DNA of 64,000 nucleotides from an uncultured Clostridia bacterium (GTDB lineage Bacteria; Bacillota; Clostridia; UMGS1883), in contig CANPZO010000002.1 in the NCBI GenBank assembly GCA_947589005.1, forward strand, positions 7,713 to 71,712. The letters are read 5' to 3'. Positions 3,907-52,515 of the stretch are shown here, piece after piece; the stretch's first letter is position 1, and each line of letters begins with the position of its first letter. Made by a program: the position numbers and the translations under genes. The notes under the pieces are model-generated. The model searched no databases, was not told where the DNA came from, and was given only the letters and a program-made list of their open reading frames with translations.

Positions 3907-6900
3907 TTACACTATTTCCACTGTCTCAGCTTCGCCGAGGGGCGTCATTGCTCGCAGCGATCTCCACACAAAGACCTTGGCCCGCTTAATATCCGCGGAA
4001 AGCGGAATATCAATGGTGTAGGACGCGCTGCCGTCACATTCCTGACTTCTCACCGACAAAAGTTTGCCATTGCCATCATATGCCGTCACAATTACAAACG
4101 CATTTTCGAGAGGTTCTGAGGCATCGACATAAAACCTGTAGCTGGACGAGAGCTTTTTATATGTAGTGGCCGTGAGCTTTTCACCGGGTTTGTCGCCAAC
4201 ATCGCCATCATCAAGGCCCACGTCAGGCTCCTGACCGGTGGTGAAAGACTTTATGTCGCCAAATTCAGTCATCTGGAACATATATGTTGTCTCCGAAAGC
4301 AGTCCGTCAATACGCACGCTGTAATCTCCGCCGCCGGCCTCGACCTCGGTCAAAATGACGTTTTCCGGCTCGGAGGCCATCCAATAGCGGATGTATCTCA
4401 CTATGCCGTCGCCCTGACCGGATACGCTGCCGCTCAGTGTCGCGTACCAACTGTCCACATCTTCCGCGTCATTGGTGACCGCCGTAACCTTTGTGCTGGT
4501 GCCGGCCACGTCTAAGGTAATAACGGTGTCCTTGTCGATGATGAAGCTATTGCCGCCCAGCTCCTCGCCGTTGACGTAAATCGCGTCGACCGTATACTCG
4601 GCGGCGGCTTCGGCGTTTACGCGGATTTCCGCGCCGTCAAGAGCTTTAATTCCGCTTGAACCGTCCGCCATCAGGAACACCGCTGAGGCGATCTCCGCCG
4701 GATCGGCGTCCACGTTTTCAAGGGAGCCGGCGGCGTTGGCCGTGGCCTGAACGGTGGCTCTGTATTCGGGAGTTATTTCTCCAAAGGTGGCGTACACGCT
4801 GCTGTCGCCGCTGACCTCGAAGGTGGAGCCGACGGTCTCGACGCCGTTGACGTAAATTTTGCCCAACACATAGCCCTGGTCAGGAACGGCGGAGACGGTG
4901 ACGATCTCGCCGTCCACGGCTTGGGACTTGTCCACGGTCACCGTACCGTGCTCCACCGCGCCCACGCTTATCTCGTTAAGGCAGTCGGTGTACAGGGTGG
5001 GGAGCTGACCCTCTCTTATCACCCATACGGCGTCGGGATTTTCTTGGAGATAGTCCATGGACTGGTAAGGCGTACCGAAAACTCTCTGCTGGAAGGACGC
5101 GCTCTTAAGCTGAGACATGGGTCGCTTGGTCTCGCTTGTTTCAACCTTTTTGCCGCTCGTCGTCAGCTTGAGACCGTCGTTGACATGGTTGTTTTGATAT
5201 GTGGCTGATAAATTGATTTCGCCAACAATATCGCCAACTTTAGAGCCGGTGTTATTGGAAATTATTTCATTAACGATAACAACAACGTCGTTTACGACGC
5301 CACTGCCTGACGCACCGCCAATATTTGCTTTACAATTAGCGGATATTACGCCGTTTACTTTTGCGAAACATTTTTTGCAGTCACCTTTGCCTGTCAAACC
5401 GCCAATTTTAATATTTGCTTTCTCATTTTTATTCCCATTGCATACAATTGCACCACCTTGATATTGGCTATCTTCGATGATTCGAGACATATTCCCCGCT
5501 ATGCCGCCAACATACATATCCTTTGCTCGGTTAGAGTTTACGCAAATGCTGTCATCGTCTGATGTAAACTTTACTGTACAGCGAAGGATGGAATCCGTAC
5601 ATATGCCAACAAGCCCGCCAATATTAAACGTGCTGTATGAGGTGTCGTTATAATATAGTTCTGTAGGATTACTGGTCAATTGTGCGGCGGATACTGTACA
5701 ATTGTATATCATTCCTTCTGAAGCACCGACCATACCGCCCACACTCGTATATTGACCAACAGTGCCGGAAATGGTCATAAGACTATCTTGGGACGTTACT
5801 TCGCAGTCAGTTAGATTGCCATCTATGCATCCTGACAATTGTCCTACTGTTAAATTTCCCCAGTTAACATCTCGATCAAGTGAAATAAAACATGTGTATG
5901 CCGAGCAATTTATGATGTCTCCTGTAATATCACCCAAAAGGCAGCCGAGACAACCCTCATCAGCAAATGAAACTCCTGATACGTTTACATATGTAGCTTT
6001 GCAACTGTCAATGTTTAAACATAATCCGCGTCCTAAAAGTGCTCCCACATATCCGTCACCATATCTATTGTCCATAGTAAAGCCATGGATATCTCCTGAC
6101 ACAGCTACATTTTTCAGCTCGCCAAATTTACCTGATTCCCAGTATGATTTTTTCCCTTTCGCATACCCAAAAATACCAACATAGCCTTCATAAGCCTTGG
6201 TGATCCTCAAATCCGAAATAGTATAGCCGTTGCCGTCAAACGAGCCGCGAAAATACTGATAATCGTTGCCGTAAAGACCGATGGGCACCCATTCGGTGTT
6301 GCCGAGGCTGATGTTGCCGGTAAGCTCGTAGTATTCATACTCCGGATCCGAGGTTTGGGAATTTACCCTTTGTGCAAGATAGGCGAGCTCGGCGGCGCTG
6401 GATATCTGATAGGGGTCGTCCTTGGTGCCGCTGCCGCCGGCAAAGGCCGTGGCCGTGCCGCCGCTCCACGAGCTGTCGCCCCAGACCGCGTAAAGGGTGG
6501 CGTCGTCCTCAAAGGTGTAGTCCATGCCGAGGCGGTATTCCGGCGCGGAAGCGTCGTAGCTCTTCGCCCAGCCACGAAGATAGCAGCCGTCCTTTATGGC
6601 CGAATTGGGCATACGCATGGTGTCGCCGTAGGTCAACTTCTGGTCCTGGAGCTCGCCCTTGCCGCCGTTGAGGTCAAAGTGTATGTCAAAGACCTTTGGT
6701 TCCCATACGGCGTAGAGGGTTATGTTTGTGTTTCTGTTATATCTGCCGCCGGCCTCGTATGAAGCGTAAGCCGCGGTTCGGCTTGAGGCCCAGCCCAGAA
6801 AATTATAGCCCTTTTTTGTGGGCACGGTACGGGACAGGGTCAGGGGCTGATCCTGTATTTTGGACTGCTGGGCGGGCGCGCCAGTGCCGCCGTTGGCGTC

Positions 6901-7965
6901 ATACTGCACGGTATAGGTGTTGTATATCCGGAAATCGTCACAGCTTACGGTCTTTTCCTGACCGGTATTAGTGTTGCGGACAATAAGGCTCGCGGAGTAG
7001 CTGCCGGCGGAGAGGCCGTTTACGCGGTGCTCGATGGCGTTCATGCTGTAGGTGGCGTAAAGGCCGCCGTTTTGGTAAAGCTGGAGGGTATAGTCCGTGG
7101 CGTTGGAAGCGTTGCCGCGCTTGAAGGTGGCGCTCCCGCCGGTTTTGTCAACCGTTCTTGTGAGAACGATATTGCCGATGGGATAGCACGAGCGGCAGCT
7201 TGTCACGCTTCGGGTGGAGCCGGTGTACTCCTTAGCCCCGCAGGACGTACACGTTTTGTACTCCTGATGCGGGTGGCCGCTTTCTAATTGAGTGATCCAG
7301 CTGTGGGTATGGGCGGCGGGTTTCTGGGCCGGTGAAGTCAGATTGCAGCTTCCGCTCGAAATGTACCAGTATTGGTTCAGGTTGCCTATTCGTTGGTCTT
7401 GCGTATCTCCGGATAAATAAGCCTGTGTAAGTTTAATACGGCCTGAGGGAATGCCAGAGGCTGGGTCAGCACAATAGACCGTATCCGAAGAAGCGTCGTA
7501 GTCAGTCGCCAAAACAGCATGGCGGCGTTTGGAGGGGTAGCTGTCATTAGGATACATATAGATAACTACGCCTTCCGCATGCTCACTGAGCAAAGAAATG
7601 AGCTTGTTTTTCTTATCCGCCGAAGAACCGGAAAACATACCGTATTTTACGGTCATTCCGGCATAAGAAAAACTAAGTCTTTGTCCCGCACCGGATACCC
7701 ATCCATAAGGCTCAACCGCGCTTTCTGTTATAGAATCCCAGTTTTCGTTGCCGCTTAAAAGCGCGTTCCTGCGAAGCATCATTGTTACAGAGGCCAAGGT
7801 ACACCTGCCTTTGCCCGACTGCTTTTTAAACACCGACGGATCATTTGCTGATGGAAGCGCCATAGTTTCGGCATCCCCTGTGCTCGCAAACGAAGCCGCC
7901 GGCACAAAGCTCAGAACCATTGCCATACAGACAAGCATGGCTAAAAGTTTTTTCCACTTTATCAT
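3907..7965 (-). CDS. Large secreted surface protein with several domain-like segments
   Basis: Start is the MIKWKK ATG with AAGGAGG RBS (the upstream ATG lacks an RBS). Signal peptide present. Segments: C39-like papain-fold peptidase motif 'GKGRCTLASVTMMLR'; two 'YNFLGW...YAVWEP' Listeria-Bacteroides repeats; a long Gly/Asn-rich beta-helix region; FN3-like; C-terminal recurrent 'YDGNGKLL...VFVWRSLRAMTPL' module. Confidence 0.75.
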   Translation of the reverse strand: MIKWKKLLAMLVCMAMVLSFVPAASFASTGDAETMALPSANDPSVFKKQSGKGRCTLASVTMMLRRNALLSGNENWDSITESAVEPYGWVSGAGQRLSFSYAGMTVKYGMFSGSSADKKNKLISLLSEHAEGVVIYMYPNDSYPSKRRHAVLATDYDASSDTVYCADPASGIPSGRIKLTQAYLSGDTQDQRIGNLNQYWYISSGSCNLTSPAQKPAAHTHSWITQLESGHPHQEYKTCTSCGAKEYTGSTRSVTSCRSCYPIGNIVLTRTVDKTGGSATFKRGNASNATDYTLQLYQNGGLYATYSMNAIEHRVNGLSAGSYSASLIVRNTNTGQEKTVSCDDFRIYNTYTVQYDANGGTGAPAQQSKIQDQPLTLSRTVPTKKGYNFLGWASSRTAAYASYEAGGRYNRNTNITLYAVWEPKVFDIHFDLNGGKGELQDQKLTYGDTMRMPNSAIKDGCYLRGWAKSYDASAPEYRLGMDYTFEDDATLYAVWGDSSWSGGTATAFAGGSGTKDDPYQISSAAELAYLAQRVNSQTSDPEYEYYELTGNISLGNTEWVPIGLYGNDYQYFRGSFDGNGYTISDLRITKAYEGYVGIFGYAKGKKSYWESGKFGELKNVAVSGDIHGFTMDNRYGDGYVGALLGRGLCLNIDSCKATYVNVSGVSFADEGCLGCLLGDITGDIINCSAYTCFISLDRDVNWGNLTVGQLSGCIDGNLTDCEVTSQDSLMTISGTVGQYTSVGGMVGASEGMIYNCTVSAAQLTSNPTELYYNDTSYSTFNIGGLVGICTDSILRCTVKFTSDDDSICVNSNRAKDMYVGGIAGNMSRIIEDSQYQGGAIVCNGNKNEKANIKIGGLTGKGDCKKCFAKVNGVISANCKANIGGASGSGVVNDVVVIVNEIISNNTGSKVGDIVGEINLSATYQNNHVNDGLKLTTSGKKVETSETKRPMSQLKSASFQQRVFGTPYQSMDYLQENPDAVWVIREGQLPTLYTDCLNEISVGAVEHGTVTVDKSQAVDGEIVTVSAVPDQGYVLGKIYVNGVETVGSTFEVSGDSSVYATFGEITPEYRATVQATANAAGSLENVDADPAEIASAVFLMADGSSGIKALDGAEIRVNAEAAAEYTVDAIYVNGEELGGNSFIIDKDTVITLDVAGTSTKVTAVTNDAEDVDSWYATLSGSVSGQGDGIVRYIRYWMASEPENVILTEVEAGGGDYSVRIDGLLSETTYMFQMTEFGDIKSFTTGQEPDVGLDDGDVGDKPGEKLTATTYKKLSSSYRFYVDASEPLENAFVIVTAYDGNGKLLSVRSQECDGSASYTIDIPLSADIKRAKVFVWRSLRAMTPLGEAETVEIV

Positions 7966-8084
7966 GTATATTCCTCCTTGTTTTTTTCTCATTATAACAT
8001 ACTATCTTTAAAAAAGCAATACTATCTCTATAAATTTATAAAAAATGTCTTTAAAAAGGATATAATATATTTGGTGATGATATA

Positions 8085-8414
8085 ATGAATTTGAAAAACA
8101 TAGGAAAAAACGTCAAGCAAATACGGAAGTCACGTAACTTGACCCAAGAAAAGCTGGCCGAGGCTATTGATATTTCCACCGTTCATATGTCACACATTGA
8201 AACAGGCAGCGTCTGCATGAGCCTCGACTGCCTGCTTTACCTGTGTACGGTTCTTGGAACCACGCCAAACGACATTTTGTTAGGCGAATTTGACCTGCCG
8301 GTCGAGGGGCAGGTGCGCATATCTGACGAAAAAATAAAAAGGCTCACCGCCGACGAGCTTTTGTTTATAGGCCGCGTCGCCGATTTGTTGAATGAAATTA
8401 AGCTGAACAGATGA
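8085..8414 (+). CDS. Xre/Cro-C1 family HTH transcriptional regulator
   Basis: HTH_3 motif 'IRKSRNLTQEKLAEAIDISTVHMSHIETG'. Confidence 0.8.
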   Translation: MNLKNIGKNVKQIRKSRNLTQEKLAEAIDISTVHMSHIETGSVCMSLDCLLYLCTVLGTTPNDILLGEFDLPVEGQVRISDEKIKRLTADELLFIGRVADLLNEIKLNR

Positions 8415-8692
8415 GGCCCGATATCCCTTTTGAAAACTCTATGCAACTGTTTACCGGCAAAATCAACGAGTTGACAGAGGAAAACGAGCGGCTTAACCGA
8501 GAAATAACTGAGAAAAAAGCCTCACTACCCGCCGCCCCTCTATCAACAGATGAAATCATGGCCTTAAAGCAAGACTTCATCACCTATATGCTTGACGAGA
8601 ACAATCTCCCGATTTGTAAAAAATGCCTTCAATCACTGATTGAGGGCATTTTTATTTATGAGGATGAAGTCAAGATAGTTTTCAACATTTAA
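8411..8692 (+). CDS. Hypothetical coiled-coil protein (93 aa)
   Basis: ATGA overlap with the upstream Xre gene. C-terminus '...CKKCLQSLIEGIFIYEDEVKIVFNI' faintly recalls a recombinase C-terminus (weak). Confidence 0.4.
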   Translation: MRPDIPFENSMQLFTGKINELTEENERLNREITEKKASLPAAPLSTDEIMALKQDFITYMLDENNLPICKKCLQSLIEGIFIYEDEVKIVFNI

Positions 8693-8699
8693 ACCTACA

Positions 8700-9231
8700 T
8701 CTGTCCCCATTTTGAGCCTATCCTCACCATAAGAGGATAGGCTCCTTTCGGGCATGATTTGTAAAATTCAAATATACATCTACCTATGAATTTAAGATAT
8801 CAGCTATATGCAGATGAGCAGATGTTTTCATCTGCATATCATGCGCACTCTTTCGAAGATAGTTTTTACCAATAACTTACTGCACTTTATAAATCCATGC
8901 TCCCCCGCTCCCCCTTGTTTAATCTATCACGCATGCAGGGATAGAACGATTTTTCATGTGCATATATGGTTATACAGCTTTAGTTAAAGAGATTATTATT
9001 TTCTATAAGGTCTGTGTAATATTATCAACAGAAGATGAGACAAGTACATATATCATCTGAAGATAGCTATTATATATTTTCATAGCAAGATGAATTATGT
9101 AACTCTATCATCTGCGGATAGATTTTTTTAAACCTCATCTTTCCATGATAACTTCATTTTCACTAAAAATTTTTTAAAGTTATTTTTATCAGGTACTTAC
9201 TGCACTTTCGTCTCCAAGGTGGGGAATTTGA
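8700..9231. repeat. AT-rich non-coding region with multiple short inverted repeats around a 'catctg' core and 14-bp direct repeats 'acttactgcacttt' (8873 and 9195)
   Basis: For example 'atgcagatga...tcatctgcat', 'agatga...tcatct', 'ctatcatctgcggatag'. The direct repeats are exact. Confidence 0.6.
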
Positions 9232-9258
9232 CGGTATACGCACCTTCTCCGCCAACAA

Positions 9259-9312
9259 AACCCCCACTTGAGGGCGAAAAATCCCAAAGCTTAAAGGGCT
9301 TTGGGATTTTTT
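9259..9312 (+). terminator. Rho-independent terminator (copy of 3134..3186)
   Basis: 'cccccacttgaggg' then 'aaaaatcccaaagcttaaagggctttgggattttttt'. Confidence 0.65.
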
Positions 9313-9441
9313 TGTGTCTTATTGCGGTATTGTAGTAGGGGAAATGTGATGTTGTTATAGGATTTTTCAATCGCTCATGCACCAAAGCTCCTTTCAGATA
9401 TATATCATTACTTTGATATTATCAGAAAGGAGTTTTTTATT

Positions 9442-9810
9442 ATGAAAAAAATCTGGACAAAAGCGCAGTGCCATGAGCTTATGGGGCTTCCGCCTCCTGT
9501 TCATGTTAAGATTAATGAAACTGTCGCAATACTCAATTTTTACTATGGCGAGAACAGGGACGTTGACAAAAATCTCGGCGGATACGTTCTGTTGATAGAG
9601 AGCGAAAATAATTTTGAAAGCCTTAAAGCTATCTTTCATGAGGAGATAGAAAACCTGACCGCAGAATATGTGGATATAATCTCATGCGAAAACACGTCCG
9701 CATATGTATGCGCTCAAATTGTGCTCTCTGACGATTATTCCGTCGTAATGCTTATTCCCCGTCCAATAACGCCAAACTCGCTGTTAGAACAGGCAAATTC
9801 AAGCTCATAG
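9442..9810 (+). CDS. Hypothetical protein (122 aa), paralog of 3314..3682
   Basis: About 93% amino-acid identity to the copy A gene, with the same RBS context. Confidence 0.6.
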   Translation: MKKIWTKAQCHELMGLPPPVHVKINETVAILNFYYGENRDVDKNLGGYVLLIESENNFESLKAIFHEEIENLTAEYVDIISCENTSAYVCAQIVLSDDYSVVMLIPRPITPNSLLEQANSSS

Positions 9811-23981: not shown

Positions 23982-24027
23982 TAAAAAAGCGACCGGGCGG
24001 CTCAAACTTGCCGGTGAGCCCTATGAA

Positions 24028-24215
24028 TTAGGGGGAAAGCTCGAAAGGGATCTCCCTTTCGATAAAAAACATAAAATCCCAGGGCGTGTACCTGGGATTT
24101 TATACCTTAATCGGGGTAGAAATTAAATTTTATCAAGATAAAATTTAATTTTGTAAGCGCAAGCGCCCGATGCGGAGGGGTTCTCTCAAAGGGGAACCGT
24201 GCGGGTTCCCCTTTG
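24028..24215. repeat. Multi-hairpin intergenic repeat element, copy A (four stem-loops plus conserved single-stranded motifs)
   Basis: Matches the reverse complement of 34331..34512. Loops and linkers are conserved ('gggcgtgtacc', 'ataccttaatcgggg', 'gtaagcgcaagcgcccgatgcgga') while the stems differ in sequence but stay complementary. Confidence 0.7.
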
Positions 24216-24216
24216 A

Positions 24217-24609
24217 TTAAAACTTTATTTCCTCCGGCGGGGCGGTGAAGGACGAGAAAACCGCCGTGGCGTCCTTGAAATACAGAACCTCGGTGTTGTC
24301 GTCGTCGGGGGAGTACATGGCCTGAAGATCGGGATAGCTCTCGAGCAGGTGGGCCTTGGCCTCCCTGCGGTCGTCCCGCACAAGTGTGCCCGAAACGCGG
24401 AGCCACTTTTCGCCGTTAAAAGCGCAAAGCTCCGCCTTGGGGTTAGCTTGAATTTGCTTCGACACGGCCTTTGCCTTGCCGGTCTGAATGTAAAGCTTAC
24501 CCTCGAAAATGTCCACCGTACCGAAGGGGCGCACCCTCGGCTGGTCCCCCTCCGCCGTGGCCATATAGTAGGTTCCGCAGGCTTTCAGAAATTCATAAAC
24601 CTTTTCCAT
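24217..24609 (-). CDS. Pyridoxamine 5'-phosphate oxidase-like FMN-binding protein (general stress protein 26 family)
   Basis: 'MEKVYEFLKACGTYYMATAEGDQPRVRPFGTV' is a typical PNPOx-like N-terminus. 130 aa. Confidence 0.75.
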   Translation of the reverse strand: MEKVYEFLKACGTYYMATAEGDQPRVRPFGTVDIFEGKLYIQTGKAKAVSKQIQANPKAELCAFNGEKWLRVSGTLVRDDRREAKAHLLESYPDLQAMYSPDDDNTEVLYFKDATAVFSSFTAPPEEIKF

Positions 24610-24771
24610 AAATCATACCTCCATATTTGTTGTATTATCATTATACAAAATTTAAGTTGAAAAATCAAGCGCGAAATGAAAAATCTCACACAATCCTCAC
24701 ATTTTCCTCATAAATTTTTAACAAATATGTTGTACAATAAAAACAGAAATTCGTAACGGGCGGGAAAAAAT

Positions 24772-26918: not shown

Positions 26919-28352
26919 ATGAAAACATTGAACGCAAAAAGGCTGATCGCCTTTGCGGTGGCCGTGGCGGTGATCTGCCTGGGCTTCGGCCTTTACGCCT
27001 GGCACAGCGGCCGTCCCGTGATGGACACGGCGCAGGCGGCGGACGCGGGCACGGTGATCAAGCTGCAAATCGGCAGCCCCACCATGACCGTCAACGGGGC
27101 GGAGCAGGAGATCGACCCCGGCAGAGGAACGGCGCCCATCATTCAGGATAACCGGACGCTGCTCCCAATTCGGGCGGTCATCGAGGCCCTGGGCGGCAGC
27201 GTGACCTGGGATCAGGAAACTCAGACGGTTATGCTGGCGTATAAGGGCGACATAATCACCATGGTCATCGGCAGCACCTCGGCCTATATCAACGAGGACG
27301 CCCAGACCCTTGACGTGGCCCCCGTCATAATCGACGGGCGCACCATGCTGCCCATACGCTTTGTGGCGGAGGGCTTCAAGCTGGGCGTTGACTGGGACGG
27401 CGAGACCCGGATCGTCACCGTGACCGCGTCCGCGCCGGAGGGACACGCCACCAATGACGCCGACGCCCCGACGGTGTACATGACGACGAGCATCACCCCG
27501 GAGGCCCTTGTCGCCATATATGAGAAGCTGGGCTTTGAACCCCAGGGCAACGTCGCGGTGAAGATGTCCACCGGCGAGCCGCCAAACAGCAACTATTTAA
27601 GACCGGAGCTTATCGGCGACTTGGTTAAAAAGGTTGACGGTACAATCGTTGAGTGCAACACCGCCTACGGCGGCAGCCGCTCCAATACCGCCATGCATAA
27701 ACAAGTTATAGAGGATCACGGTCTTAACGCCATATCAAAGAACGGTGTCGCTGACATTATGGACGAGGACGGTTCCCTCGTAATCCCCGTACCCACGCCC
27801 GAAAACGGCAAGTCAACCATTACCGAGGACTATGTGGGCGCTCACCTCGCCAACTATGACAGCCTAATCTCGCTGGCCCACTTCAAGGGTCACGCAATGG
27901 CGGGCTACGGCGGAGCCATAAAGAATATGTCAATCGGCATCGGCTCCACCGAGGGCAAGTGCTATATCCATTCCGCCGGACAGAGCCACACCTCGCCCTG
28001 GGGCGGCGATCAGGACAAATTCCTTGAATCCATGGGCGACGCCACCAGCGCCGTTGTCAATCAGTTTGACGGACGGGTGGTATATATCAACGTGATGAAC
28101 CGGCTGTCCGTGGACTGCGACTGCGACGGCAATCCCGCCGAGCCGGATATGCACGACATCGGTATACTGGCCTCCTATGACCCGGTGGCTTTGGATCAGG
28201 CGTGTCTTGACCTCGTATATGCTCAAAAGGACGGCGACGGCAAGTCTCTCGTCCAGCGCATCGAGAGCCGCAACGGTCTCCACACCCTCGAGCACGCCGA
28301 GGAAATAGGGCTTGGAAGCAGAACGTACAATTTGGTCAGCATAGATAACTAA
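26919..28352 (+). CDS. Secreted or membrane-anchored protein: Cu-amine-oxidase-N repeats plus DUF362 domain
   Basis: N-terminal anchor 'LIAFAVAVAVICLGFGLYAW'. Cu_amine_oxidN1 'LQIGSPTMTVNGAEQEID...LLPIRAVIEALGGSVTWD'. DUF362-like 'IVECNTAYGGSRS...LAHFKGHAMAGYGGAIKNMSIGIGS...DCDCDGNP'. Paralog of 38466..40205. Confidence 0.75.
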   Translation: MKTLNAKRLIAFAVAVAVICLGFGLYAWHSGRPVMDTAQAADAGTVIKLQIGSPTMTVNGAEQEIDPGRGTAPIIQDNRTLLPIRAVIEALGGSVTWDQETQTVMLAYKGDIITMVIGSTSAYINEDAQTLDVAPVIIDGRTMLPIRFVAEGFKLGVDWDGETRIVTVTASAPEGHATNDADAPTVYMTTSITPEALVAIYEKLGFEPQGNVAVKMSTGEPPNSNYLRPELIGDLVKKVDGTIVECNTAYGGSRSNTAMHKQVIEDHGLNAISKNGVADIMDEDGSLVIPVPTPENGKSTITEDYVGAHLANYDSLISLAHFKGHAMAGYGGAIKNMSIGIGSTEGKCYIHSAGQSHTSPWGGDQDKFLESMGDATSAVVNQFDGRVVYINVMNRLSVDCDCDGNPAEPDMHDIGILASYDPVALDQACLDLVYAQKDGDGKSLVQRIESRNGLHTLEHAEEIGLGSRTYNLVSIDN

Positions 28353-28427
28353 GCTTGACAGAACCAATAAAAAAGAGTATAATTCAGGTAGTACAAAATT
28401 AATATTTAATATAAGGAGGAAAACAAA

Positions 28428-28781
28428 ATGGCATGTTTTATCGTACCAACGGCGGAGGCAATCGTAACGACGGTTGTAAAGAAATCTACGGACAAAAAGG
28501 AAACGCGTAATCCCTTCATCAAACGGCTGAACTGGCTTAACAATATGCTTTGGGGCGGCAGCGCGCTCCTCGCTTTCGAGCACGTTTGGCACGGGGAGGT
28601 TACGCCCTGGTTCCCGTTCCTGACCAACGCGGCGACGCCCGCAAGCACGGCCGCGATGCTGGGAGAAATGGCGACGTCCGGCGTGGGCATGGCGCTCTTG
28701 GTTACGGCGGTATGGGCCGGAATTGCCGCCGCTGCAAACGCGATAGAAAAACGCCCTGTAAGCGCGGAATTGCAGGCATAA
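28428..28781 (+). CDS. Small predicted membrane protein
   Basis: RBS AAGGAGG. Hydrophobic segments. Confidence 0.5.
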   Translation: MACFIVPTAEAIVTTVVKKSTDKKETRNPFIKRLNWLNNMLWGGSALLAFEHVWHGEVTPWFPFLTNAATPASTAAMLGEMATSGVGMALLVTAVWAGIAAAANAIEKRPVSAELQA

Positions 28782-28785
28782 ACGA

Positions 28786-29094
28786 ATGACGCTTTTAATA
28801 ACGGTTTTCGCGGCCGTCACGGTAACGGTGATTTGGTACAACACCGCGGGCAGAATGAAGCTGGGGACGCTGGCGCTGATGCTTTGGGGCGCGGCGTTGA
28901 TGTGGCTTGTTGACGCTGTCGCGGAATACATAGAAGTCGGGGCGGAGTATTTTACTCCCGCCCCGGCGGATATGCTGAACGACGCTTATCTCGGACTGTC
29001 CGTGATTGCCCTCGCGCTGGTGATATGGCTTGCGGTCGTCTTGTACAAAGACCCGAAGGGCCGGATAAGAAAGGCCATACAAAAAGAAAAATAG
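28786..29094 (+). CDS. Small predicted membrane protein
   Basis: Three hydrophobic helices. Adjacent to the previous small gene. Confidence 0.5.
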   Translation: MTLLITVFAAVTVTVIWYNTAGRMKLGTLALMLWGAALMWLVDAVAEYIEVGAEYFTPAPADMLNDAYLGLSVIALALVIWLAVVLYKDPKGRIRKAIQKEK

Positions 29095-29103
29095 GGGATA
29101 GGG

Positions 29104-29150
29104 CGGTTTTGTTTGTAGGCTGAAACCGCCCTTCTTTTCAGGAGCAAACA
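29104..29150 (+). terminator. Intrinsic terminator
   Basis: 'agggcggttttgtttgtaggctgaaaccgcccttcttttc'. Confidence 0.55.
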
Positions 29151-29164
29151 GGAGCAAAGAAAAA

Positions 29165-29956
29165 ATGAACGCAAAATATGAGAAGCTAAAAAATTATCTG
29201 AAAGACCTTGGCTCGGTTGCCGTGGCCTTTTCCGGCGGCGTGGATTCTACCTTTCTGTTAAAGACCGCCCATGACGTTTTGGGCGACAAGGCGGTCGCCG
29301 TGACCGCCCGGTCCTGTTCCTTTCCGGAGCGGGAGCTCGGCGAGGCAAAGCGGTTTTGCGCCCGGGAGGGAATTCGCCATATTGTGGTGCAATCGGAAGA
29401 GCTGAGCATCGAGGGCTTCGCGGACAATCCGAAAAACCGCTGTTACCTCTGCAAAACGGAACTGTTCAAAAAAATGCGTGAAGCGGTCGCCTCCCTTGGG
29501 ATAGAGCATATCGCGGAGGGGTCCAATATGGACGACAACGGCGATTACCGCCCCGGACTTATCGCGGTTCGGGAGCAGGGCATCAAAAGTCCGCTGCGAT
29601 ACGCGGAGCTTAATAAAAATGAAATACGGGAATTATCCAAGGAGCTTGGTTTAGATACATGGAATAAGCAGTCCTTCGCCTGCCTTTCCTCCCGCTTTGT
29701 TTACGGTGAGAAAATTACGGAGGAAAAGCTGAACATGGTGGACAGGGCCGAACAATACCTGCTGGATTTGGGATTTACTCAGGTGCGGGTGCGGATCCAC
29801 GGGAAAATGGCGCGAATAGAAATTAACAGGGACGAATTCCCCAAAATGATAGGCGTGTCCCAACAGGTTTACGAGTATCTGAAAAATTTGGGCTTTACCT
29901 ATGTGTCGCTGGACCTTTGCGGCTACCGCACGGGGAGCATGAACGAGGTGCTGTGA
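29165..29956 (+). CDS. larE: LarE-like ATP-dependent sulfur-transferase (PP-loop ATP pyrophosphatase) of nickel-pincer cofactor biosynthesis
   Basis: PP-loop 'AVAFSGGVDSTFLLKTAHD'. Conserved 'NPKNRCYLCK'. Immediately followed by larB. Confidence 0.75.
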   Translation: MNAKYEKLKNYLKDLGSVAVAFSGGVDSTFLLKTAHDVLGDKAVAVTARSCSFPERELGEAKRFCAREGIRHIVVQSEELSIEGFADNPKNRCYLCKTELFKKMREAVASLGIEHIAEGSNMDDNGDYRPGLIAVREQGIKSPLRYAELNKNEIRELSKELGLDTWNKQSFACLSSRFVYGEKITEEKLNMVDRAEQYLLDLGFTQVRVRIHGKMARIEINRDEFPKMIGVSQQVYEYLKNLGFTYVSLDLCGYRTGSMNEVL

Positions 29957-29957
29957 A

Positions 29958-30719
29958 ATGGAGCAAAAGGAATTAAAACAGCTCTTGCGGGACGTGGCGG
30001 AGGGAAGGCTCTCCGCGGACGACGCGCTGCTGAAATTCAGGGCCCAGCCCTTTGAGGATTTGGGCTTTGCCAAAATTGACCACCACAGGAGCGTGCGTCA
30101 GGGAGCCGCGGAAGTGATTTACGGAGCGGGAAAAACGCCGGAGCAGATTGCGGAGATTGCAAAGCGGCTCCGCTTCGCCGGACAGAAAACGGTTTTGATT
30201 ACCCGAATGAGCAAGGAGGCGGCGGAGGTCACCGGCGGCGAGCTTCCGCTGACCTATCACGAGATAGCGCGGATAGGAATTGTGGGCGAAATGCCGGAGC
30301 CCGATACGGACTCGGCCGTCGTCATTGCCAGCGGCGGCACCAGCGATATGCCCGTCGCGGAGGAGGCCGCGCTTACCGCTCAGGCGCTCGGGAACAAGGT
30401 GACGCGGCTTTACGACGTGGGCGTCGCGGGCCTGCACAGATTGCTGGCGCATACGGAGGAGATCATGCGGGCAAAGGTGATTGTCGCGGTCGCCGGCATG
30501 GAGGGCGCGCTGGCCAGCGTGATAGGCGGCCTGGCGGACTGCCCCGTTGTCGCCGTCCCCACAAGCGTCGGTTACGGAGCGTCTTTCGGCGGCCTGTCCG
30601 CGCTGCTGTCCATGCTCAATTCCTGCGCAAGCGGCGTCAGCGTGGTAAACATTGACAACGGTTTCGGCGCCGGTTATCTTGCGAGTATGATAAATCACAT
30701 GGGAGGGACAAACCGGTGA
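29958..30719 (+). CDS. larB: LarB-like pyridinium-3,5-biscarboxylic acid mononucleotide synthase (PurE-like)
   Basis: The N-terminal extension plus PurE-like 'KVIVAVAGMEGALASVIGGLADCPVVAVPTSVGYG' is typical of LarB. Confidence 0.75.
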   Translation: MEQKELKQLLRDVAEGRLSADDALLKFRAQPFEDLGFAKIDHHRSVRQGAAEVIYGAGKTPEQIAEIAKRLRFAGQKTVLITRMSKEAAEVTGGELPLTYHEIARIGIVGEMPEPDTDSAVVIASGGTSDMPVAEEAALTAQALGNKVTRLYDVGVAGLHRLLAHTEEIMRAKVIVAVAGMEGALASVIGGLADCPVVAVPTSVGYGASFGGLSALLSMLNSCASGVSVVNIDNGFGAGYLASMINHMGGTNR

Positions 30720-30845
30720 AAATTTTATACATGGACTGCGCGATGGGCGCTTCCGGCGATATGCCGGCCGCTTGGCCCGAATTGCACTGGAACGCGAAAT
30801 CAGCCTTGAAGAGGCCGGACGGCCGCTGGAAAGCGAGAGTTAAAA
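30716..30845 (+). pseudogene. larC: LarC remnant: only about 20 N-terminal codons recognisable, the rest deleted or frameshifted
   Basis: GTGA overlap with the larB stop. 'VKILYMDCAMGASGDM' matches the canonical LarC N-terminus (M.ILY.DC..G.SGDM). The frame then collapses and the next gene starts at 30846. Confidence 0.5.
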
Positions 30846-31751
30846 ATGATTTGGAACGTTTTAAGGCGTGAGTTCGTCTACCTCTGGTACTACTTTGAGG
30901 TGCAGCTCCGTCAGATAGTGCCCTATTGGGCGCTGGGTATAGTGCTGGGCTCGGTAATCTCCGTGTTCGGCAAGGAAAAAATACACAAAATGGTGGTCGC
31001 AATTCAGGACAAGCACCTTGGTCTGTTCGGGCTGATACCGGCGGCTTTGCTGGGCATCGCCTCGCCCCTGTGTATGTACGGGACAATCCCGCTGGCGGCG
31101 TCCTTTTCCCAAAAGGGCCTGCGGGACGACTACCTGGCCGCCTTCATGATGTGCAGCGTGCTGTTAAATCCCCAGCTTCTCATCTACAGCGCGGCTCTGG
31201 GGCCCACGGCCCTGACGGTGCGCTTCGTGAGCTGCTTCCTCTGCGGAGTGGTGGCGGGACTGTTGATACGGTGCTTTTTTAAGGACAAAAGCTTCTTCAA
31301 CTTCGAGGGCTTTTCCGAGCGTGCCAGCCGTGATACCGACCCAAATATGCTCCTGCGGCTGCTTAAAAACATTGGCCGCAACATCAAGGCCACGGGCAAG
31401 TGGTTTTTGCTGGGCATATTCCTTACGGCGCTGTATCAAAGGTACGTCCCGCAGGAGGCTTTCGCCGCCCTTTTCGGCAAAAACGAAGGCTTCGGGGTGC
31501 TGATGGCGGCGACGATAGGCGTGCCGCTGTACGTCTGCGGCGGCGGGACGATACCGCTGCTCCAGGAATGGCTCATGAACGGCATGAGCATGGGCGCGGC
31601 GGCGTCATTTATGGTGACCGGCCCGGCCACGAAGATAACCAACCTTGGCGCGCTTAAAATCGTGCTTGGGATAAGGAATTTCATTCTCTACATAGCTTAT
31701 GTGATAGCGTTTTCGCTGGCGGCGGGACTGCTGGTGGATCTGATTGTTTAG
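30846..31751 (+). CDS. Predicted permease (DUF318/YraQ-like two-repeat permease family)
   Basis: Multiple TM helices. Motifs 'IASPLCMYGTIPLAASF' and 'GVPLYVCGGGTIPLL' typical of DUF318 permeases. Confidence 0.65.
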   Translation: MIWNVLRREFVYLWYYFEVQLRQIVPYWALGIVLGSVISVFGKEKIHKMVVAIQDKHLGLFGLIPAALLGIASPLCMYGTIPLAASFSQKGLRDDYLAAFMMCSVLLNPQLLIYSAALGPTALTVRFVSCFLCGVVAGLLIRCFFKDKSFFNFEGFSERASRDTDPNMLLRLLKNIGRNIKATGKWFLLGIFLTALYQRYVPQEAFAALFGKNEGFGVLMAATIGVPLYVCGGGTIPLLQEWLMNGMSMGAAASFMVTGPATKITNLGALKIVLGIRNFILYIAYVIAFSLAAGLLVDLIV

Positions 31752-31764
31752 GGAGGAGAAGCTC

Positions 31765-32661
31765 ATGCACAACCATCACCTTGAAACCTTCATTAGGGTT
31801 GCCGACAGCGGCAGCTTTTCAAAGGCCGCCGACGTCATGTTCATTTCCCCCACCGCGGTTATCAAGCAGATAGATTTGCTTGAGCAGGAGCTGGGGCTTA
31901 AGCTCATGGAGCGCAGCTCTCGGGGCGTTAGCCTCACCCCCGCCGGTGAGTCAGTGTATAACGACGCCAAGTACATGATACAGTATTCCCACGACTCCAT
32001 CGTCCGCGCTCAAAACGCCATGGAAAAAAAGGAAAAGGTCATACGCATCGGCGTGTCGCTAATGACCCCGGCCCAATTCGTGCTTTCGCTGTGGCCGAGG
32101 ATCAAGGAGATATGCCCGGGGCTGACGTTCCGTCTTGTGCCCTTTGACAACACTCCGGCCAACGCCCGGGAGATACTGAAAAACCTTGGCACCAACATCG
32201 ACATTGTGGCCGGCTGGTACGACGAGGATTTCCTCAGCAGCCGGGGCTGCGCGGCCCTTCGCCTTGAGGACGAGCCTATCTGCTGCGCGGTGAGCGTTAA
32301 CCACCGTCTCGCGGGCAATAAGCGGCTCAAGGTGGAGGACTTGGCGGGCGAAAACCTTATGCTCATCCGCCGGGGCTGGAACCGCTACACCGACGCTCTG
32401 CGGGAGCATTTGTGGATGAACTTTCCCGACCTCAAGGTGACCGACGTGCCTTTCTTCGACGTGAGCGTATTCAACCGCTGCGAGGAGGAGGGCGGCGTCC
32501 TCGTCGCTTTCGGCAAGTGGGAAAGCGTCCACCCGCTGCTCAAAATAATCCCCGTGGACTGGGGCTTTACCATTCCCTTCGGTATATTGCACTCGCCGAG
32601 GCCGTCAAGCGTGGTGAGCGAGTTTTTGAGCGCGGTCAAAGATGTGTGTTCAATTTCATAA
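31765..32661 (+). CDS. LysR-family transcriptional regulator
   Basis: RBS GGGAGGAG. HTH 'LETFIRVADSGSFSKAADVMFISPTAVIKQIDLLEQELGLKLM'. Confidence 0.85.
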   Translation: MHNHHLETFIRVADSGSFSKAADVMFISPTAVIKQIDLLEQELGLKLMERSSRGVSLTPAGESVYNDAKYMIQYSHDSIVRAQNAMEKKEKVIRIGVSLMTPAQFVLSLWPRIKEICPGLTFRLVPFDNTPANAREILKNLGTNIDIVAGWYDEDFLSSRGCAALRLEDEPICCAVSVNHRLAGNKRLKVEDLAGENLMLIRRGWNRYTDALREHLWMNFPDLKVTDVPFFDVSVFNRCEEEGGVLVAFGKWESVHPLLKIIPVDWGFTIPFGILHSPRPSSVVSEFLSAVKDVCSIS

Positions 32662-33065
32662 CCTTTAGGGCTGTAAAAAATAGTGCAGACCTGCGTCGTC
32701 ACAAAATCGGCATCGCCGTTTTGCGGGGGGTTGCCGCCTTCGGCGGCTTATATGTCCGTCTTTGTATGACGGCGGCTTGAAGGCAAGCCGCCCTACGCCC
32801 TACTGTAACAGTTACGTATAGGGCGGGCTGCCCTCAGCCCGCCGCGGCCCGCATGACGGGCTTTGCCCCGACGCAGACAGTGTGATTTTCGTTCGTAGTT
32901 CAATGGCATAAAATGAGAAAATTCGCTCGTAAGGGCGAATTTTCTACATTAATGCAACTATTTTATTTTTATAGACTAATATTACAACACTAAAATTTGC
33001 CTTAAATTAAGGAATTAAGCCCTTGAACGATCTGCGCCATTTTTTTACGGCCCCCTTTTTAGCTT

Positions 33066-35689: not shown

Positions 35690-37391
<1,702 letters not shown>

Positions 37392-37767: not shown

Positions 37768-38250
37768 ATGGCGTCGTTGATAATATATTATTCTCAGGCG
37801 CGTGGGAATACGAGGCGCATCGCGGAAATGATACGTCAGGCCACGAACTATGACATCGCCGAAATAGAAACCGCGTTTCCGTATAAGGGAACTTATGAGG
37901 AAATCGTCGATCAGGGAAAGGCCGAGGTCAGCGAGGGCTATATGCCGGAGCTGAGGCCCTTGGGTAAAATACTTTCCGGCTATGACACCGTCATAATCGG
38001 CACGCCGACATGGTGGTACACCATGGCCCCCGCCGTCCGCGCCTTTCTCACGGAAAACGATTTCAGCGGAAAAACCGTTGTTCCGTTTCACACTCACGGC
38101 GGCTGGCCCGGACACACCCTTGACGACATGAAGGCGCTGTGCAAGGGGGCGAGCTTTAAAAACGAGATGTCCGTGCAGTTTGATTTTGAGGGCGGGAGCA
38201 CTCTCATAACGCCCGAGGATAAGCTGCGGGATTGGATAAAGAAGCTTTAA
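37768..38250 (+). CDS. Flavodoxin-family protein (cytoplasmic)
   Basis: RBS AAGGAGG. 'LIIYYSQARGNTRRIAE' and 'VIIGTPTWWYTMAP'. 160 aa. Confidence 0.8.
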   Translation: MASLIIYYSQARGNTRRIAEMIRQATNYDIAEIETAFPYKGTYEEIVDQGKAEVSEGYMPELRPLGKILSGYDTVIIGTPTWWYTMAPAVRAFLTENDFSGKTVVPFHTHGGWPGHTLDDMKALCKGASFKNEMSVQFDFEGGSTLITPEDKLRDWIKKL

Positions 38251-38259
38251 TAAGTTTAA

Positions 38260-38430
38260 GGCAATACCGCACAAAGACCGCTTTAAAGCTTTGCACCCGT
38301 CTTGCTTGCATCTTTTCCGACGTTTCTTACGAAAACTCCTTGAAATACGACAGGTATCCTATGGTCGTTTTCGTAATTCCGTCAAAAAATCTGCGGCGCA
38401 ATACGGGCACAATCTCTGTGCGGTATTGCC
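38260..38430. repeat. REP-like palindromic element (arms GGCAATACCGCACA / TGTGCGGTATTGCC) split by an about 140-bp insert; related hairpin at 63779..63811
   Basis: Arms at 38260-38273 and 38417-38430. The inner region carries a degenerate second copy. Confidence 0.55.
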
Positions 38431-38465
38431 TTAATATAACCACTATAACTACTGGAGGCGAGAAA

Positions 38466-40205
38466 ATGAAAAATCTCAAAAAAATCACGGCCTTTGCCCT
38501 GAGCCTTGCCGTACTCTGTCTCGGCTTCGGGCTGCTTGTCCGCACGCAAAAGACCACCACGGCCTACGCCGCGGACACCGGCTACGAGACCACTGACCCT
38601 GACGCTCCCGAGGTGCTGTTCACCTCGGAGATAACCTCCGAGTCGCTGCTCCGTATATATAAAGCCCTTGGCTTTGACGCGGAGGGCGAGGTGGCCGTCA
38701 AGATGTCCACCGGCGAGCCGCCAAACAGCAACTATCTCCGTCCCGAGCTGATAAAAGACCTTATCCAGGAGGTGGACGGCACCATCGTCGAGTGCAACAC
38801 CGCCTACGGCGGACGGCGCTCCAGCACCGCCATGCACCGGCAGGTGATAGAGGACCACGGCTTTCTCGACGTGGCAAAGGCCGTTGACATAATGGACGAA
38901 GACGGGGACATCACCATTCCCGTTCCCACGCCTGCCACAGGCGCGCGTTCGACCATAACCACCAACCGCGTGGGCGCCCATCTTACGAACTACGACAGCC
39001 TTATCTCGCTGGCCCACTTCAAGGGCCACGCCATGGCGGGATACGGCGGAGCTATCAAAAATATGTCAATCGGCATCGGCTCGGTGGCGGGCAAGTGCCT
39101 TATCCACACGGGCGGCAGATCCAGTACAAGTCCCTGGGGCGGCAACCAGAACGCCTTTCTTGAATCCATGGGCGACGCCACAAGCAGCGTGGTAAATCAG
39201 TTTGACGGAAAAGTCGTTTATATCAACGTGATGAACCGGTTGTCAATAGACTGCGACTGCGACGGCAACCCCTCCGAGCCGGATATGCACGACATCGGCA
39301 TACTGGCCTCCTATGACCCGGTGGCGCTGGATCAGGCTTGCCTTGACCTGATTTCTCAGGCCGACGGCAACACGAGATTTTTAAACCGTGTCAACGGTCA
39401 AAACGGCTTCCACACCCTTGAACACGCAGAGGAGATAGGTCTCGGCAGCCGAAGCTACCGCATACGGGATATCGACGCCGAGCCGGTGGCCGTCACCATG
39501 AGCTATGACAACGGACAGCTTACGGTTTCGGGCCTTGACGGCGAGGCGGCCCTCATCAGAGTTTCATATTCCGACGGCGCTTTGGCGGGAGTCGATATTT
39601 CCTCCGTTACCAACGGGACGCGGAACATGGAGGCCGAGGGCGGCGACAGGCTTTTCCTCTGGAACAGTCTCATGTCCATGCAGCCCCTGTGCCCGTCGGT
39701 GACCGTGCCCGACGGCGGGCCCAAGACCCTCGTGGTCTACTACTCCGCCACCAACACTACCGAGGGAGTGGCCGAAAAGATAGCCGCCTACACCGGCGCG
39801 GATATTTTCGAGATCACTCCGTCCGACCCCTACACCGACGACGACCTTGACTGGACGGACAATAACAGCCGCGTTGTGGCCGAGCATGACGACCCCGACG
39901 GCCGCCATGTGGAGCTTGAGACTACCGACGTTCCCGACTGGACAAGCTACGACACCGTATATATCGGCGCGCCCATATGGTGGGGCGAGTTCTCGTGGGT
40001 AATCGACGATTTTGTAAAGAACAACGATTTCACGGGTAAAACAGTTATACCTTTCTGCACCTCAATGTCCTCCGGTTTGGGCGACAGCGGGCGGCACGTC
40101 GCTGAAATGACGTCCTCCGGCAACTGGTTGGACGGCAAACGCTTTGGCACACGGGCAAGCGAAGCAGAGGTACAGGAATGGATAGACAGCTTGGGGCTTA
40201 ATTAA
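38466..40205 (+). CDS. Secreted or anchored protein: DUF362 domain plus recurrent YS.G.L/F.W..PL module plus C-terminal extracellular flavodoxin-like domain
   Basis: RBS GGAGGCGAG. Anchor 'ITAFALSLAVLCLGFGLLV'. DUF362 paralog of 26919 ('IVECNTAYGGRRS...DCDCDGNPSEPDMHDIG'). The C-terminal 145 aa are nearly identical to the 35687 flavodoxin domain. Confidence 0.75.
   Translation: MKNLKKITAFALSLAVLCLGFGLLVRTQKTTTAYAADTGYETTDPDAPEVLFTSEITSESLLRIYKALGFDAEGEVAVKMSTGEPPNSNYLRPELIKDLIQEVDGTIVECNTAYGGRRSSTAMHRQVIEDHGFLDVAKAVDIMDEDGDITIPVPTPATGARSTITTNRVGAHLTNYDSLISLAHFKGHAMAGYGGAIKNMSIGIGSVAGKCLIHTGGRSSTSPWGGNQNAFLESMGDATSSVVNQFDGKVVYINVMNRLSIDCDCDGNPSEPDMHDIGILASYDPVALDQACLDLISQADGNTRFLNRVNGQNGFHTLEHAEEIGLGSRSYRIRDIDAEPVAVTMSYDNGQLTVSGLDGEAALIRVSYSDGALAGVDISSVTNGTRNMEAEGGDRLFLWNSLMSMQPLCPSVTVPDGGPKTLVVYYSATNTTEGVAEKIAAYTGADIFEITPSDPYTDDDLDWTDNNSRVVAEHDDPDGRHVELETTDVPDWTSYDTVYIGAPIWWGEFSWVIDDFVKNNDFTGKTVIPFCTSMSSGLGDSGRHVAEMTSSGNWLDGKRFGTRASEAEVQEWIDSLGLN
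39770..40197 (+). repeat. Near-identical (about 99%) duplication of 36090..36520 (flavodoxin-like domain coding sequence)
   Basis: Direct comparison. The antisense ORFs 36270..36473 and 39947..40150 translate identically. Confidence 0.85.
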
Positions 40206-52428: not shown

Positions 52429-52515
52429 GCCGATGTGATGGAATTGGTAGACGTAGTGGACTCAAAATCCACCGGTAGCGATACCGTGCCGGTTCGAGTC
52501 CGGCCATCGGCACCA
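52429..52515 (+). tRNA. tRNA-Leu (anticodon CAA)
   Basis: Cloverleaf readable: acceptor GCCGATG/CATCGGC plus CCA, anticodon loop CUCAAAA, long variable arm, T-arm GGTTCGAGTCC. Confidence 0.85.

Follow-up and report, generated by a model that had tools for sequence, protein, structure and literature searches.

The reference pathway for the nickel-pincer nucleotide is encoded by the Lactiplantibacillus plantarum lar operon (larA-larE), and its biosynthetic enzymes LarB, LarE and LarC are known to act in sequence on NaAD, carboxylating and hydrolysing it, adding sulfur and inserting nickel (PMC11770544). In L. plantarum, larC1/larC2 is translated by means of a programmed ribosomal frameshift (PMC13510736). 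Genomes with larB, larC and larE but without larA make up about 15% of those surveyed (PMC11796402), and LarA-less lar clusters can serve other enzymes, such as the NphT aldo-keto reductases (PMC13524815), a further case being the NPAD ornithine cyclodeaminase (cited in PMC13524815).

The 64-kb stretch of DNA from an uncultured gut Clostridia bacterium analysed here, which we call the window, encodes a homolog of the L. plantarum LarE but has neither LarA nor a Lar(MN)QO transporter, and its larC is deleted. It resembles the NphT and NPAD clusters in having lar biosynthesis genes without LarA beside oxidoreductase genes; unlike in the NphT clusters, however, its aldo-keto reductase is DkgA-like, and the sole LarA-related candidates are DUF362 proteins. 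Much closer is a sister cluster in the metagenome-assembled genome Lapin-008__bin63 (L008; CANQRB010000007.1), with a second example in ENA ERZ27249467 (L094). Both have the same gene order as the window, and the L008 proteins are 98% (LarE) and 96% (LarB) identical to those of the window, but the sister cluster encodes a complete 397-residue LarC (LarC1 plus LarC2), whereas the window is without 1,066 bp of larC.

All on the forward strand, the genes of the window locus run in the order sm117, sm102, larE, larB, larC remnant, ArsP_1 permease and lysR, with a DUF362 gene upstream. A promoter-like TTGACA-17 nt-TATAAT site (28355-28383; 12 of 12 matches in a consensus scan, a pattern match only) precedes sm117 (28428-28781), which encodes a small membrane protein of no known family (no Pfam or NCBIfam match), and alignment shows the adjoining sm102 (28786-29094) to be its apparent paralogue. 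Between sm102 and larE lies a stable, terminator- or attenuator-like hairpin followed by UUCUUUUC (29093-29139; RNA fold -22.4 kcal/mol, z = -2.24), and an Rfam scan for riboswitches and other known RNAs around the operon matched only a tRNA at 52429-52512. The earlier note on this DNA had taken larE and larB to be genuine and full length, and profile searches bore this out, as both exceeded the NCBI model cut-offs. LarE (29165-29956), an ATP-dependent sulfur transferase, scored 346.8 bits against TIGR00268 (cut-off 150) over profile positions 2-259 of 259. LarB (29958-30719), the carboxylase/hydrolase making P2CMN, scored 287.3 bits against NF033503 (cut-off 175) over positions 1-209 of 209 and carries a PurE/AIRC-type domain (PF00731, 60.4 bits); 1 nt separates the larE stop from the larB start. 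An alignment of LarE to its L. plantarum homolog (5UDQ, E = 2e-49) showed the SGGVDS PP-loop and a CYLC motif, with the third cysteine shifted to one residue after Cys176 of the L. plantarum protein. The CxxC-C motif marks LarE proteins of the [4Fe-4S] type (PMC9283937), and by its cysteine pattern the window LarE is of this type, in contrast to the sacrificial single-cysteine type of L. plantarum. The intact ArsP_1 (formerly DUF318) permease gene (30846-31751; PF03773, 135.9 bits with the cut-off at 32.3, profile positions 12-292 of 294) adjoins the larC stub, as the earlier note had also stated. The conserved block ends with a gene for a LysR-family regulator (31765-32661; HTH_1 and LysR_substrate domains), which is syntenic in L008, L094 and L095. 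An ArsP_1 permease and DUF362 pair also occurs distant from any lar genes.

The larC remnant falls within a 51-codon ORF (30716-30871) whose GTG start shares the sequence GTGA with the larB stop, the very overlap seen for the intact larC of L008, and whose first 16 residues (VKILYMDCAMGASGDM) match those of the L008 LarC (MKILYIDCAMGASGDM); the stub thus starts at the true larC start. The earlier note had described it as a LarC N-terminus that collapses after about 20 codons; that N-terminus is present, but so are the last 72 nt of larC, out of frame. The note had also suggested aligning this region to the larC of relatives, and it was this comparison that defined the deletion: by blastn, window positions 29091-30771 align to L008 positions 5131-6814 and window positions 30772-32665 to L008 positions 7881-9774, so that the gap between the aligned blocks, L008 6815-7880, comprises the 1,066 bp missing from the window. 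What is left is 128 nt, namely the 56-nt 5' end (30716-30771; authentic start, codons 1-18 plus 2 nt) joined to the final 72 nt (30772-30843; last 23 codons and the ancestral TAA stop, out of frame with the start). The two pieces have 86-93% identity to the L008 larC, are syntenic between larB and the permease gene, and when the 3' piece is read in the +1 frame it gives LARIALEREISLEEAGRPLESES before the stop, compared to LSRIAAERKISLEEAGRLLESGS in L008. The ORF itself arose through the fusion and ends 26 nt into the permease gene, and its 51-residue product had zero matches to Pfam or NCBIfam models, including TIGR00299 (LarC1), NF052512 (LarC2) and PF01969. In all, larC codons 19-374 (~90% of the gene length) were lost, a stretch comprising the entire histidine-rich, acidic-pocket LarC1 core and the CTP-binding LarC2 domain; the LarC1 and LarC2 matches of the L008 protein (residues 88-249 and 260-375, respectively) are all inside it. 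Judged from its coding content, the remnant would be unable to make the nickel insertase. Direct repeats at the deletion ends of the intact allele amounted to chance-level matches only, with no flanking repeat, and microhomology at the junction is at most 1-2 nt.

Comparison with related loci leaves us nearly certain that the larC deletion is real and derived. The closest relatives have an intact larC of 397-409 residues at the same position, including the closest species representative, L008 (92-94% nucleotide identity; LarC1 216 bits, LarC2 144 bits), as well as L094, L092 and L093. The deletion junction itself is identical in nine assemblies. Seven of these (L001-L007), produced by two pipelines, share exactly the 401 nt spanning it, and the other two (L095 and L096) represent a strain diverged by 3-5%, with larB 97.3% and the permease gene 95% identical to those of the window. 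The earlier note had raised the prospect of a sequencing error or frameshift artefact; the stub might also reflect a full-length larC that was wrongly assembled, and the low coverage of the contigs (about 2-6x) is in keeping with such explanations. However, the recurrence of one junction in nine assemblies, the diverged strain included, rules out sequencing and frameshift errors as its source, and with 1,066 bases absent rather than one, no single-base correction would restore them, making an artefact scarcely credible. We give equally little credence to the proposal that the permease gene replaced larC, whether by insertion into it or by displacing it. While the stub does adjoin and overlap the permease start, in L008 and L094 an intact larC lies between larB and the same permease gene, ending 2-3 nt before the permease, and L037 has larC, larE and the permease together in one block; this synteny refutes displacement. 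Moreover, the window retains the final 72 nt of larC upstream of the permease gene, and a clean internal deletion is the sole difference between the two arrangements. The 51-codon ORF might alternatively have been kept for a purpose, either as a bridging ORF that couples permease translation to larB or as the product of a larC1/larC2-like frameshift, given its coupled GTGA overlap with larB, its end inside the permease gene, its remaining open at 51 codons in both diverged strains, and the programmed frameshifting of the L. plantarum larC. We regard this as very unlikely, as 6 of its 51 residues differ between the strains with nucleotide divergence at the neutral level, and it matches no family. 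The LarC coding sequence is split over two frames in both systems, but the L. plantarum genes encode both domains fully; with ~90% of the coding sequence gone from the window, frameshifting cannot rescue its larC, and even a frameshifted product would have only 41 LarC residues and neither domain. The remnant is a real but ordinary pseudogene in a known system, an ordinary lineage-specific gene loss.

Whether the rest of the pathway is dying, as the earlier note had also proposed, is a closer question, and the L095/L096 strain allowed evolution after the deletion to be followed. Between it and the window larB differs by 7 nonsynonymous changes (570 sites) and 14 synonymous ones (189 sites; binomial p = 6.5e-5), and the gene has been under purifying selection since the deletion. 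The permease and lysR have dN/dS values of 0.054 and 0.049 since the deletion (0.05-0.08 over all permease comparisons), and larE has a value of 0.067 against L008. The remnant, on the other hand, is drifting at about the neutral rate: it differs at 10 of 130 nt (7.7%) between the window and L095, and its ORF, while of the same length in L095 and L096, has 6 amino acid changes, including one in a conserved SGD (to SDD). If larC loss had ended cofactor synthesis, larE and larB would be pseudogenes-to-be that have not yet been hit, and such early-stage decay of a dead pathway retains an appreciable, though lesser, likelihood. It is in line with the destruction of larC and the absence of a replacement from the 64-kb window, where a tblastn search with the L008 LarC found no second LarC. 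Sister lineages also show other losses from the block: L092 and L093 have an internal deletion in the permease gene, L070 has a LarC1-only ORF and L010 has larB without larC or larE, a pattern of differing part losses that fits an expendable cluster. Finally, the larB dN/dS was 0.16 against the other deletion-bearing strain compared to 0.077 against L008 of the intact lineage, and this approximately two-fold rise, from small counts, could mean some relaxation. Nevertheless, a neutrally evolving larB would be expected to show ~3 nonsynonymous changes per synonymous change rather than the 7:14 observed, all LarE catalytic motifs are present, and larE and larB are free of stops and frameshifts in the nine assemblies (in L095 and L096, larE is represented by its last 96-126 nt) while the remnant has diverged by 7.7%. 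The proposal of decay is therefore weakened by the selection seen on larB after the deletion, and we lean slightly towards the remaining lar genes still being in use. Our preferred overall explanation, to which we assign a probability of roughly 0.6, is a single larC deletion in a nickel-pincer block with larE and larB kept. The locus is a cofactor gene block of sm117, sm102, larE, larB, larC, permease and lysR in which the common ancestor of the strain group underwent one 1,066-bp internal deletion in larC, and LarE and LarB may still be making the sulfur-bearing precursor P2TMN, a role that would call for a LarC gene in another part of the genome. Among 80 LarB-anchored loci, 20 had no LarC within 6 kb, and lar genes were often split between loci.

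The earlier note was correct that the window has no LarA. Among the large window ORFs taken to be real genes, Pfam scans detected neither Lar_N above its cut-off nor PF01969, the best Lar_N score being 17.8 bits (cut-off 23.3) within a DUF362 protein, and a tblastn search with 5HUQ matched only the two DUF362 genes, at E = 0.16 and E = 2.0. The note's reading of this absence as a sign of decay did not hold up, however. In a set of 160 related loci linked to lar genes or to sm117, LarA was missing from the surrounding ~6 kb in every case, which makes its absence here uninformative on decay, and the published survey likewise includes genomes with larB, larC and larE but no larA. An aldo-keto reductase at 36501-37391 was considered as a possible NphT-type nickel-pincer enzyme and rejected; it appears to be a canonical DkgA-like protein (4MHB, E = 1e-109; NF008598, 270 bits), and none of the 60 best PDB matches listed is named NphT.

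The window does encode two DUF362 proteins with a LarA-like fold, both of which retain the Lys and His that bind the cofactor. The one at 26919-28352 (PF04015, 160.6 bits) begins with a membrane anchor or signal sequence and carries a Cu_amine_oxidN1 domain (PF07833, 128.5 bits) together with a sub-threshold Lar_N match. The DUF362 and LarA families belong to the same Pfam clan, CL0471 (PMC11770544). A fold search with the AlphaFold model (pLDDT 83.8) had LarA-family structures as its top 18 PDB matches (5HUQ, E = 4.5e-5; TM 0.44-0.50), the next match having E = 0.3, and a BlastP comparison to 5HUQ gave E = 7e-5; a sequence-profile search against the PDB gave no match, the link to LarA coming only through the fold search and pairwise BlastP. 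In LarA, Lys184 tethers the cofactor, His200 is a nickel ligand, Arg75 binds phosphate and His108 is the second catalytic histidine. In an ungapped local alignment, H130, K140 and H156 of the DUF362 protein, all invariant in 25 homologs, stand opposite LarA H174, K184 and H200, while Arg75 and His108 are not kept (aligned residues Glu25 and Ser58). Genomic linkage is weak: of 80 LarB loci 4 have DUF362 nearby, and of 80 sm117 loci none does. Based on the model and these residues, the protein encoded at 26919-28352 is a possible, unproven user of the nickel-pincer cofactor.

The sm117 and sm102 products are an unannotated small membrane pair that is often linked to lar genes. In alignments sm117 has an invariant LWGGSALLAFEHxWHGE motif and sm102 the motif WGAxLMWLVDAxxEYxE, and the two are near-constant partners (79 of 80 loci). 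The neighbours of pairs located away from lar genes were uninformative, with no nickel enzymes among them, and a literature search found no transporters linked to lar genes. It is conceivable, though improbable, that larB and larE are selected without larC as the block serves a non-classical role, in which the DUF362 proteins would be unrecognised enzymes using the pincer cofactor or its precursor, sm117 and sm102, with their buried His/Glu/Asp motifs, a new lar-dedicated family of nickel or cofactor transporters, and the ArsP_1 permease a partner of DUF362.

The main use of these findings lies in annotation, where the 51-codon ORF is best labelled a larC remnant rather than a gene. The wider value of the locus is modest, that of a natural experiment in which the nickel insertase was lost in one strain group with LarB still selected, the permease was lost in a sister lineage, and only LarC1 or only LarB was kept elsewhere. 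A comparison of complete genomes from these lineages would reveal the lar genes for which another locus can substitute, and also whether nickel-pincer biology includes the linked DUF362 proteins and the small membrane pair.

The lar block of the window comprises, all on the forward strand, larE (29165–29956; NCBI LarE equivalog, 346.8 bits against a cut-off of 150), larB (29958–30719; NCBI LarB equivalog, 287.3 bits against a cut-off of 175, with the full profile covered), a 51-codon ORF with a GTG start (30716–30871) that overlaps the larB stop as GTGA, and a permease gene of the ArsP_1 family, formerly DUF318 (30846–31751; 135.9 bits). A single nucleotide separates the larE stop from the larB start, and the 51-codon ORF extends 26 nt into the permease gene. 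These positions agree exactly with the ORFs of the earlier note, and its LarE and LarB assignments passed the HMM test, both scoring far over the equivalog cut-offs. LarE retains its SGGxDS PP-loop and its CxxC-C cysteines, the latter being those that bind the [4Fe-4S] cluster in the Thermotoga enzyme, while the 51-residue product matched no Pfam or NCBIfam model.

A LarB scan with one genome per species gave 80 loci, the closest being L008 (MAG Lapin-008__bin63), with 92–94% nucleotide identity to the window across ~11 kb. Its gene order is DUF362, two small membrane protein genes (sm117 and sm102), larE, larB, larC (397 residues), the same permease and LysR, and its LarC matches both domain models (LarC1, 216 bits; LarC2, 144 bits). 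Window positions 29091–30771 align with L008 5131–6814 and 30772–32665 with L008 7881–9774; as these two blocks flank a stretch found only in L008, exactly 1,066 bp are absent from the window. What had been described as a larC stub is indeed one, and the alignment to this intact relative defines it as two fused larC ends: the first 56 nt (18 codons plus 2 nt) and the final 72 nt (23 codons plus the stop). Because 1,066 is not divisible by three, the 3' piece has lost its frame within the mechanical ORF; in the +1 frame this piece translates as LARIALEREISLEEAGRPLESES before the stop, the L008 equivalent being LSRIAAERKISLEEAGRLLESGS, also before the stop. Lost with the deletion were the histidine-rich, acidic-pocket portion of LarC1 and the entire CTP-binding LarC2 domain, both of which are required for activity (PMC13510736). 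No meaningful direct repeats flank the breakpoints in the intact allele. A single old deletion inside the gene made larC of the window a pseudogene, the rest of the lar block being conserved and still constrained.

Seven assemblies with the same LarB (four ENA NODE and three Logan contigs) carry an identical 401-nt stretch spanning the stub, and exact look-ups of the LarE, permease and stub proteins returned deletion-bearing contigs only. Two further contigs (L095 and L096) carry a different LarB allele, P0127, with 97.3% identity to the window in larB and 95% in the permease, and have the same junction and 51-codon ORF. Since this junction is shared by the window and L095 strains and larC is intact in the relatives L008, L094, L092 and L093, the simplest history is one in which the common ancestor of these two strains underwent a single deletion once it had separated from the intact lineages. 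To the extent that these tools permit, the recurrence of the junction and the loss of 1,066 bp exclude an assembly artefact and a single-base frameshift. At the start of the L095 contig (1–30), larE homology ends 66 nt ahead of the larE stop codon, which reflects either an artefact of the contig end at low coverage (2.3x) or another rearrangement in that strain.

The earlier note had offered decay of the pathway as one of two readings. Speaking against continued use of larE and larB, differing parts are lost in related clusters: the permease is internally deleted in L092 and L093, larC is reduced to LarC1 in L070, and L010 is without larE and larC. In the comparison with L008, larE has a dN/dS of 0.067 and larB one of 0.077, values within the range of neighbouring genes (0.05–0.11). 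The two deletion-bearing strains offer a more telling comparison, because they sample post-deletion time: their larB genes differ by 7 nonsynonymous and 14 synonymous changes (dN/dS 0.16), whereas about three quarters would be expected to be nonsynonymous under neutrality (binomial p = 6.5e-5); constraint is likewise seen on the permease (0.054) and LysR (0.049). In the remnant, 10 of 130 nt distinguish the window from L095, near the synonymous rate, and the conserved SGD motif is SDD in L095; thus the remnant drifts and larB does not. The constraint on larB weakens the reading of a decaying pathway. Continued use of larE and larB is our inference and would most simply need a LarC encoded elsewhere; there is no second LarC in the window, and such split loci are common, 20 of the 80 LarB-anchored loci being without LarC within 6 kb.

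Eight of the 10 remnant differences lie within ~20 nt just past the junction (30776–30797), where the L095 sequence is ancestral-looking, and may represent one multi-nucleotide event. The L070 larC (1436–2191, in an Oscillospiraceae MAG) is a 251-residue, LarC1-only ORF that ends in the interdomain linker and adjoins a permease of the same kind; a further larB locus (L045) lies in this MAG. L010 (4051–7802) is a cluster of DUF362, sm117, sm102, larB and permease, in which neither larE nor larC was found within 6 kb and the larC position is a plain gap of 152 bp.

The proposal that the permease replaced larC is not borne out, as intact larC ends 2–3 nt upstream of the same permease in L008 and L094, and the larC tail is still present upstream of the window permease. 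DUF362 seems a closer associate of the permease than the lar genes are: in P0256, a lineage unrelated to this one (24 contigs), an ArsP_1 permease lies directly 3' of DUF362 amid aldo-keto reductases and flavodoxins, and none of the 10 places listed has a lar gene within 10 kb. In the sister lineage of L092 (7385–7591) and L093 (1902–2108), where larC is intact, the permease is internally deleted to a 68-residue ORF joining its nt 1–104 to nt 814–905 (the first 104 and last 92 nt).

The reported lack of LarA in the window was upheld by Pfam scans of the large ORFs considered genuine genes and by tblastn with the 5HUQ LarA sequence (checked against the PDB); nor was there a LarA match at E <= 1e-3 in any of the 80 LarB-anchored or 80 sm117-anchored loci. 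The lack of LarA is no evidence of decay: larB, larC and larE occur without larA in ~15% of surveyed genomes (PMC11796402), and cofactor users other than LarA are known (PMC13524815). The window aldo-keto reductase gives no sign of being one, as it is a canonical DkgA-like enzyme with no NphT-named entry among its best PDB matches.

Two DUF362 proteins are encoded in the window, one fused to Cu_amine_oxidN1 (26919–28352) and one to flavodoxin_4 (38232–40205). DUF362 and the LarA N-terminal domain belong to one Pfam clan, CL0471 (PMC11770544); the DUF362 AlphaFold model (pLDDT 83.8) has significant fold matches to LarA-family structures only, and BLASTP against 5HUQ gave E = 7e-5. The DUF362 residues H130, K140 and H156 align with LarA His174, Lys184 (cofactor-tethering) and His200 (nickel ligand), and Glu and Ser occupy the positions of LarA Arg75 and His108. 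The His/Lys/His triad is invariant across 25 homologues, as are three cysteines (CDC...C). In genomes, DUF362 is only weakly linked to lar genes (4 of 80 LarB loci, 0 of 80 sm117 loci), and a tie to the nickel-pincer cofactor, suggested by model and alignment, is only a lead.

Upstream of larE, sm117 (28428–28781; 117 residues) and sm102 (28786–29094; 102 residues) belong to no Pfam or NCBIfam family, look like paralogues and have invariant His/Glu/Asp motifs in alignments. They co-occur in 79 of 80 loci. In 10 of the 80 LarB-anchored species loci the pair immediately precedes larE, larB or larC, and about half (19–20 of 40) of the sm117-anchored metagenome loci with enough flank likewise have it directly ahead of lar genes. 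A perfect promoter consensus precedes the pair, and a stable hairpin (−22.4 kcal/mol; 29093–29139) followed by the U-rich tract UUCUUUUC separates it from larE, the sm102–larE intergenic region being 70 nt in the window versus ~236 nt in L008. Judged from sequence, the pair is a candidate nickel or cofactor transporter, with a role in nickel supply plausible.

More widely, ~13300–40200 holds a run of esterases, a 1,285-residue CMD/cupin/carboxylesterase fusion, flavodoxin_4 proteins, an aldo-keto reductase, an Fe-ADH and an acetyltransferase, several being Cu_amine_oxidN1 fusions behind N-terminal signal-like sequences, and resembles a cell-surface redox or detoxification island. The region is indel-prone, with ~1.4 kb extra in L008 after LysR (window 32665–32879 versus L008 9774–11180) and ~0.7 kb extra in the window (23995–24674 versus L008 498–532). 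These side observations, based on inference, are more novel than the loss of larC, itself an ordinary event in a known system.
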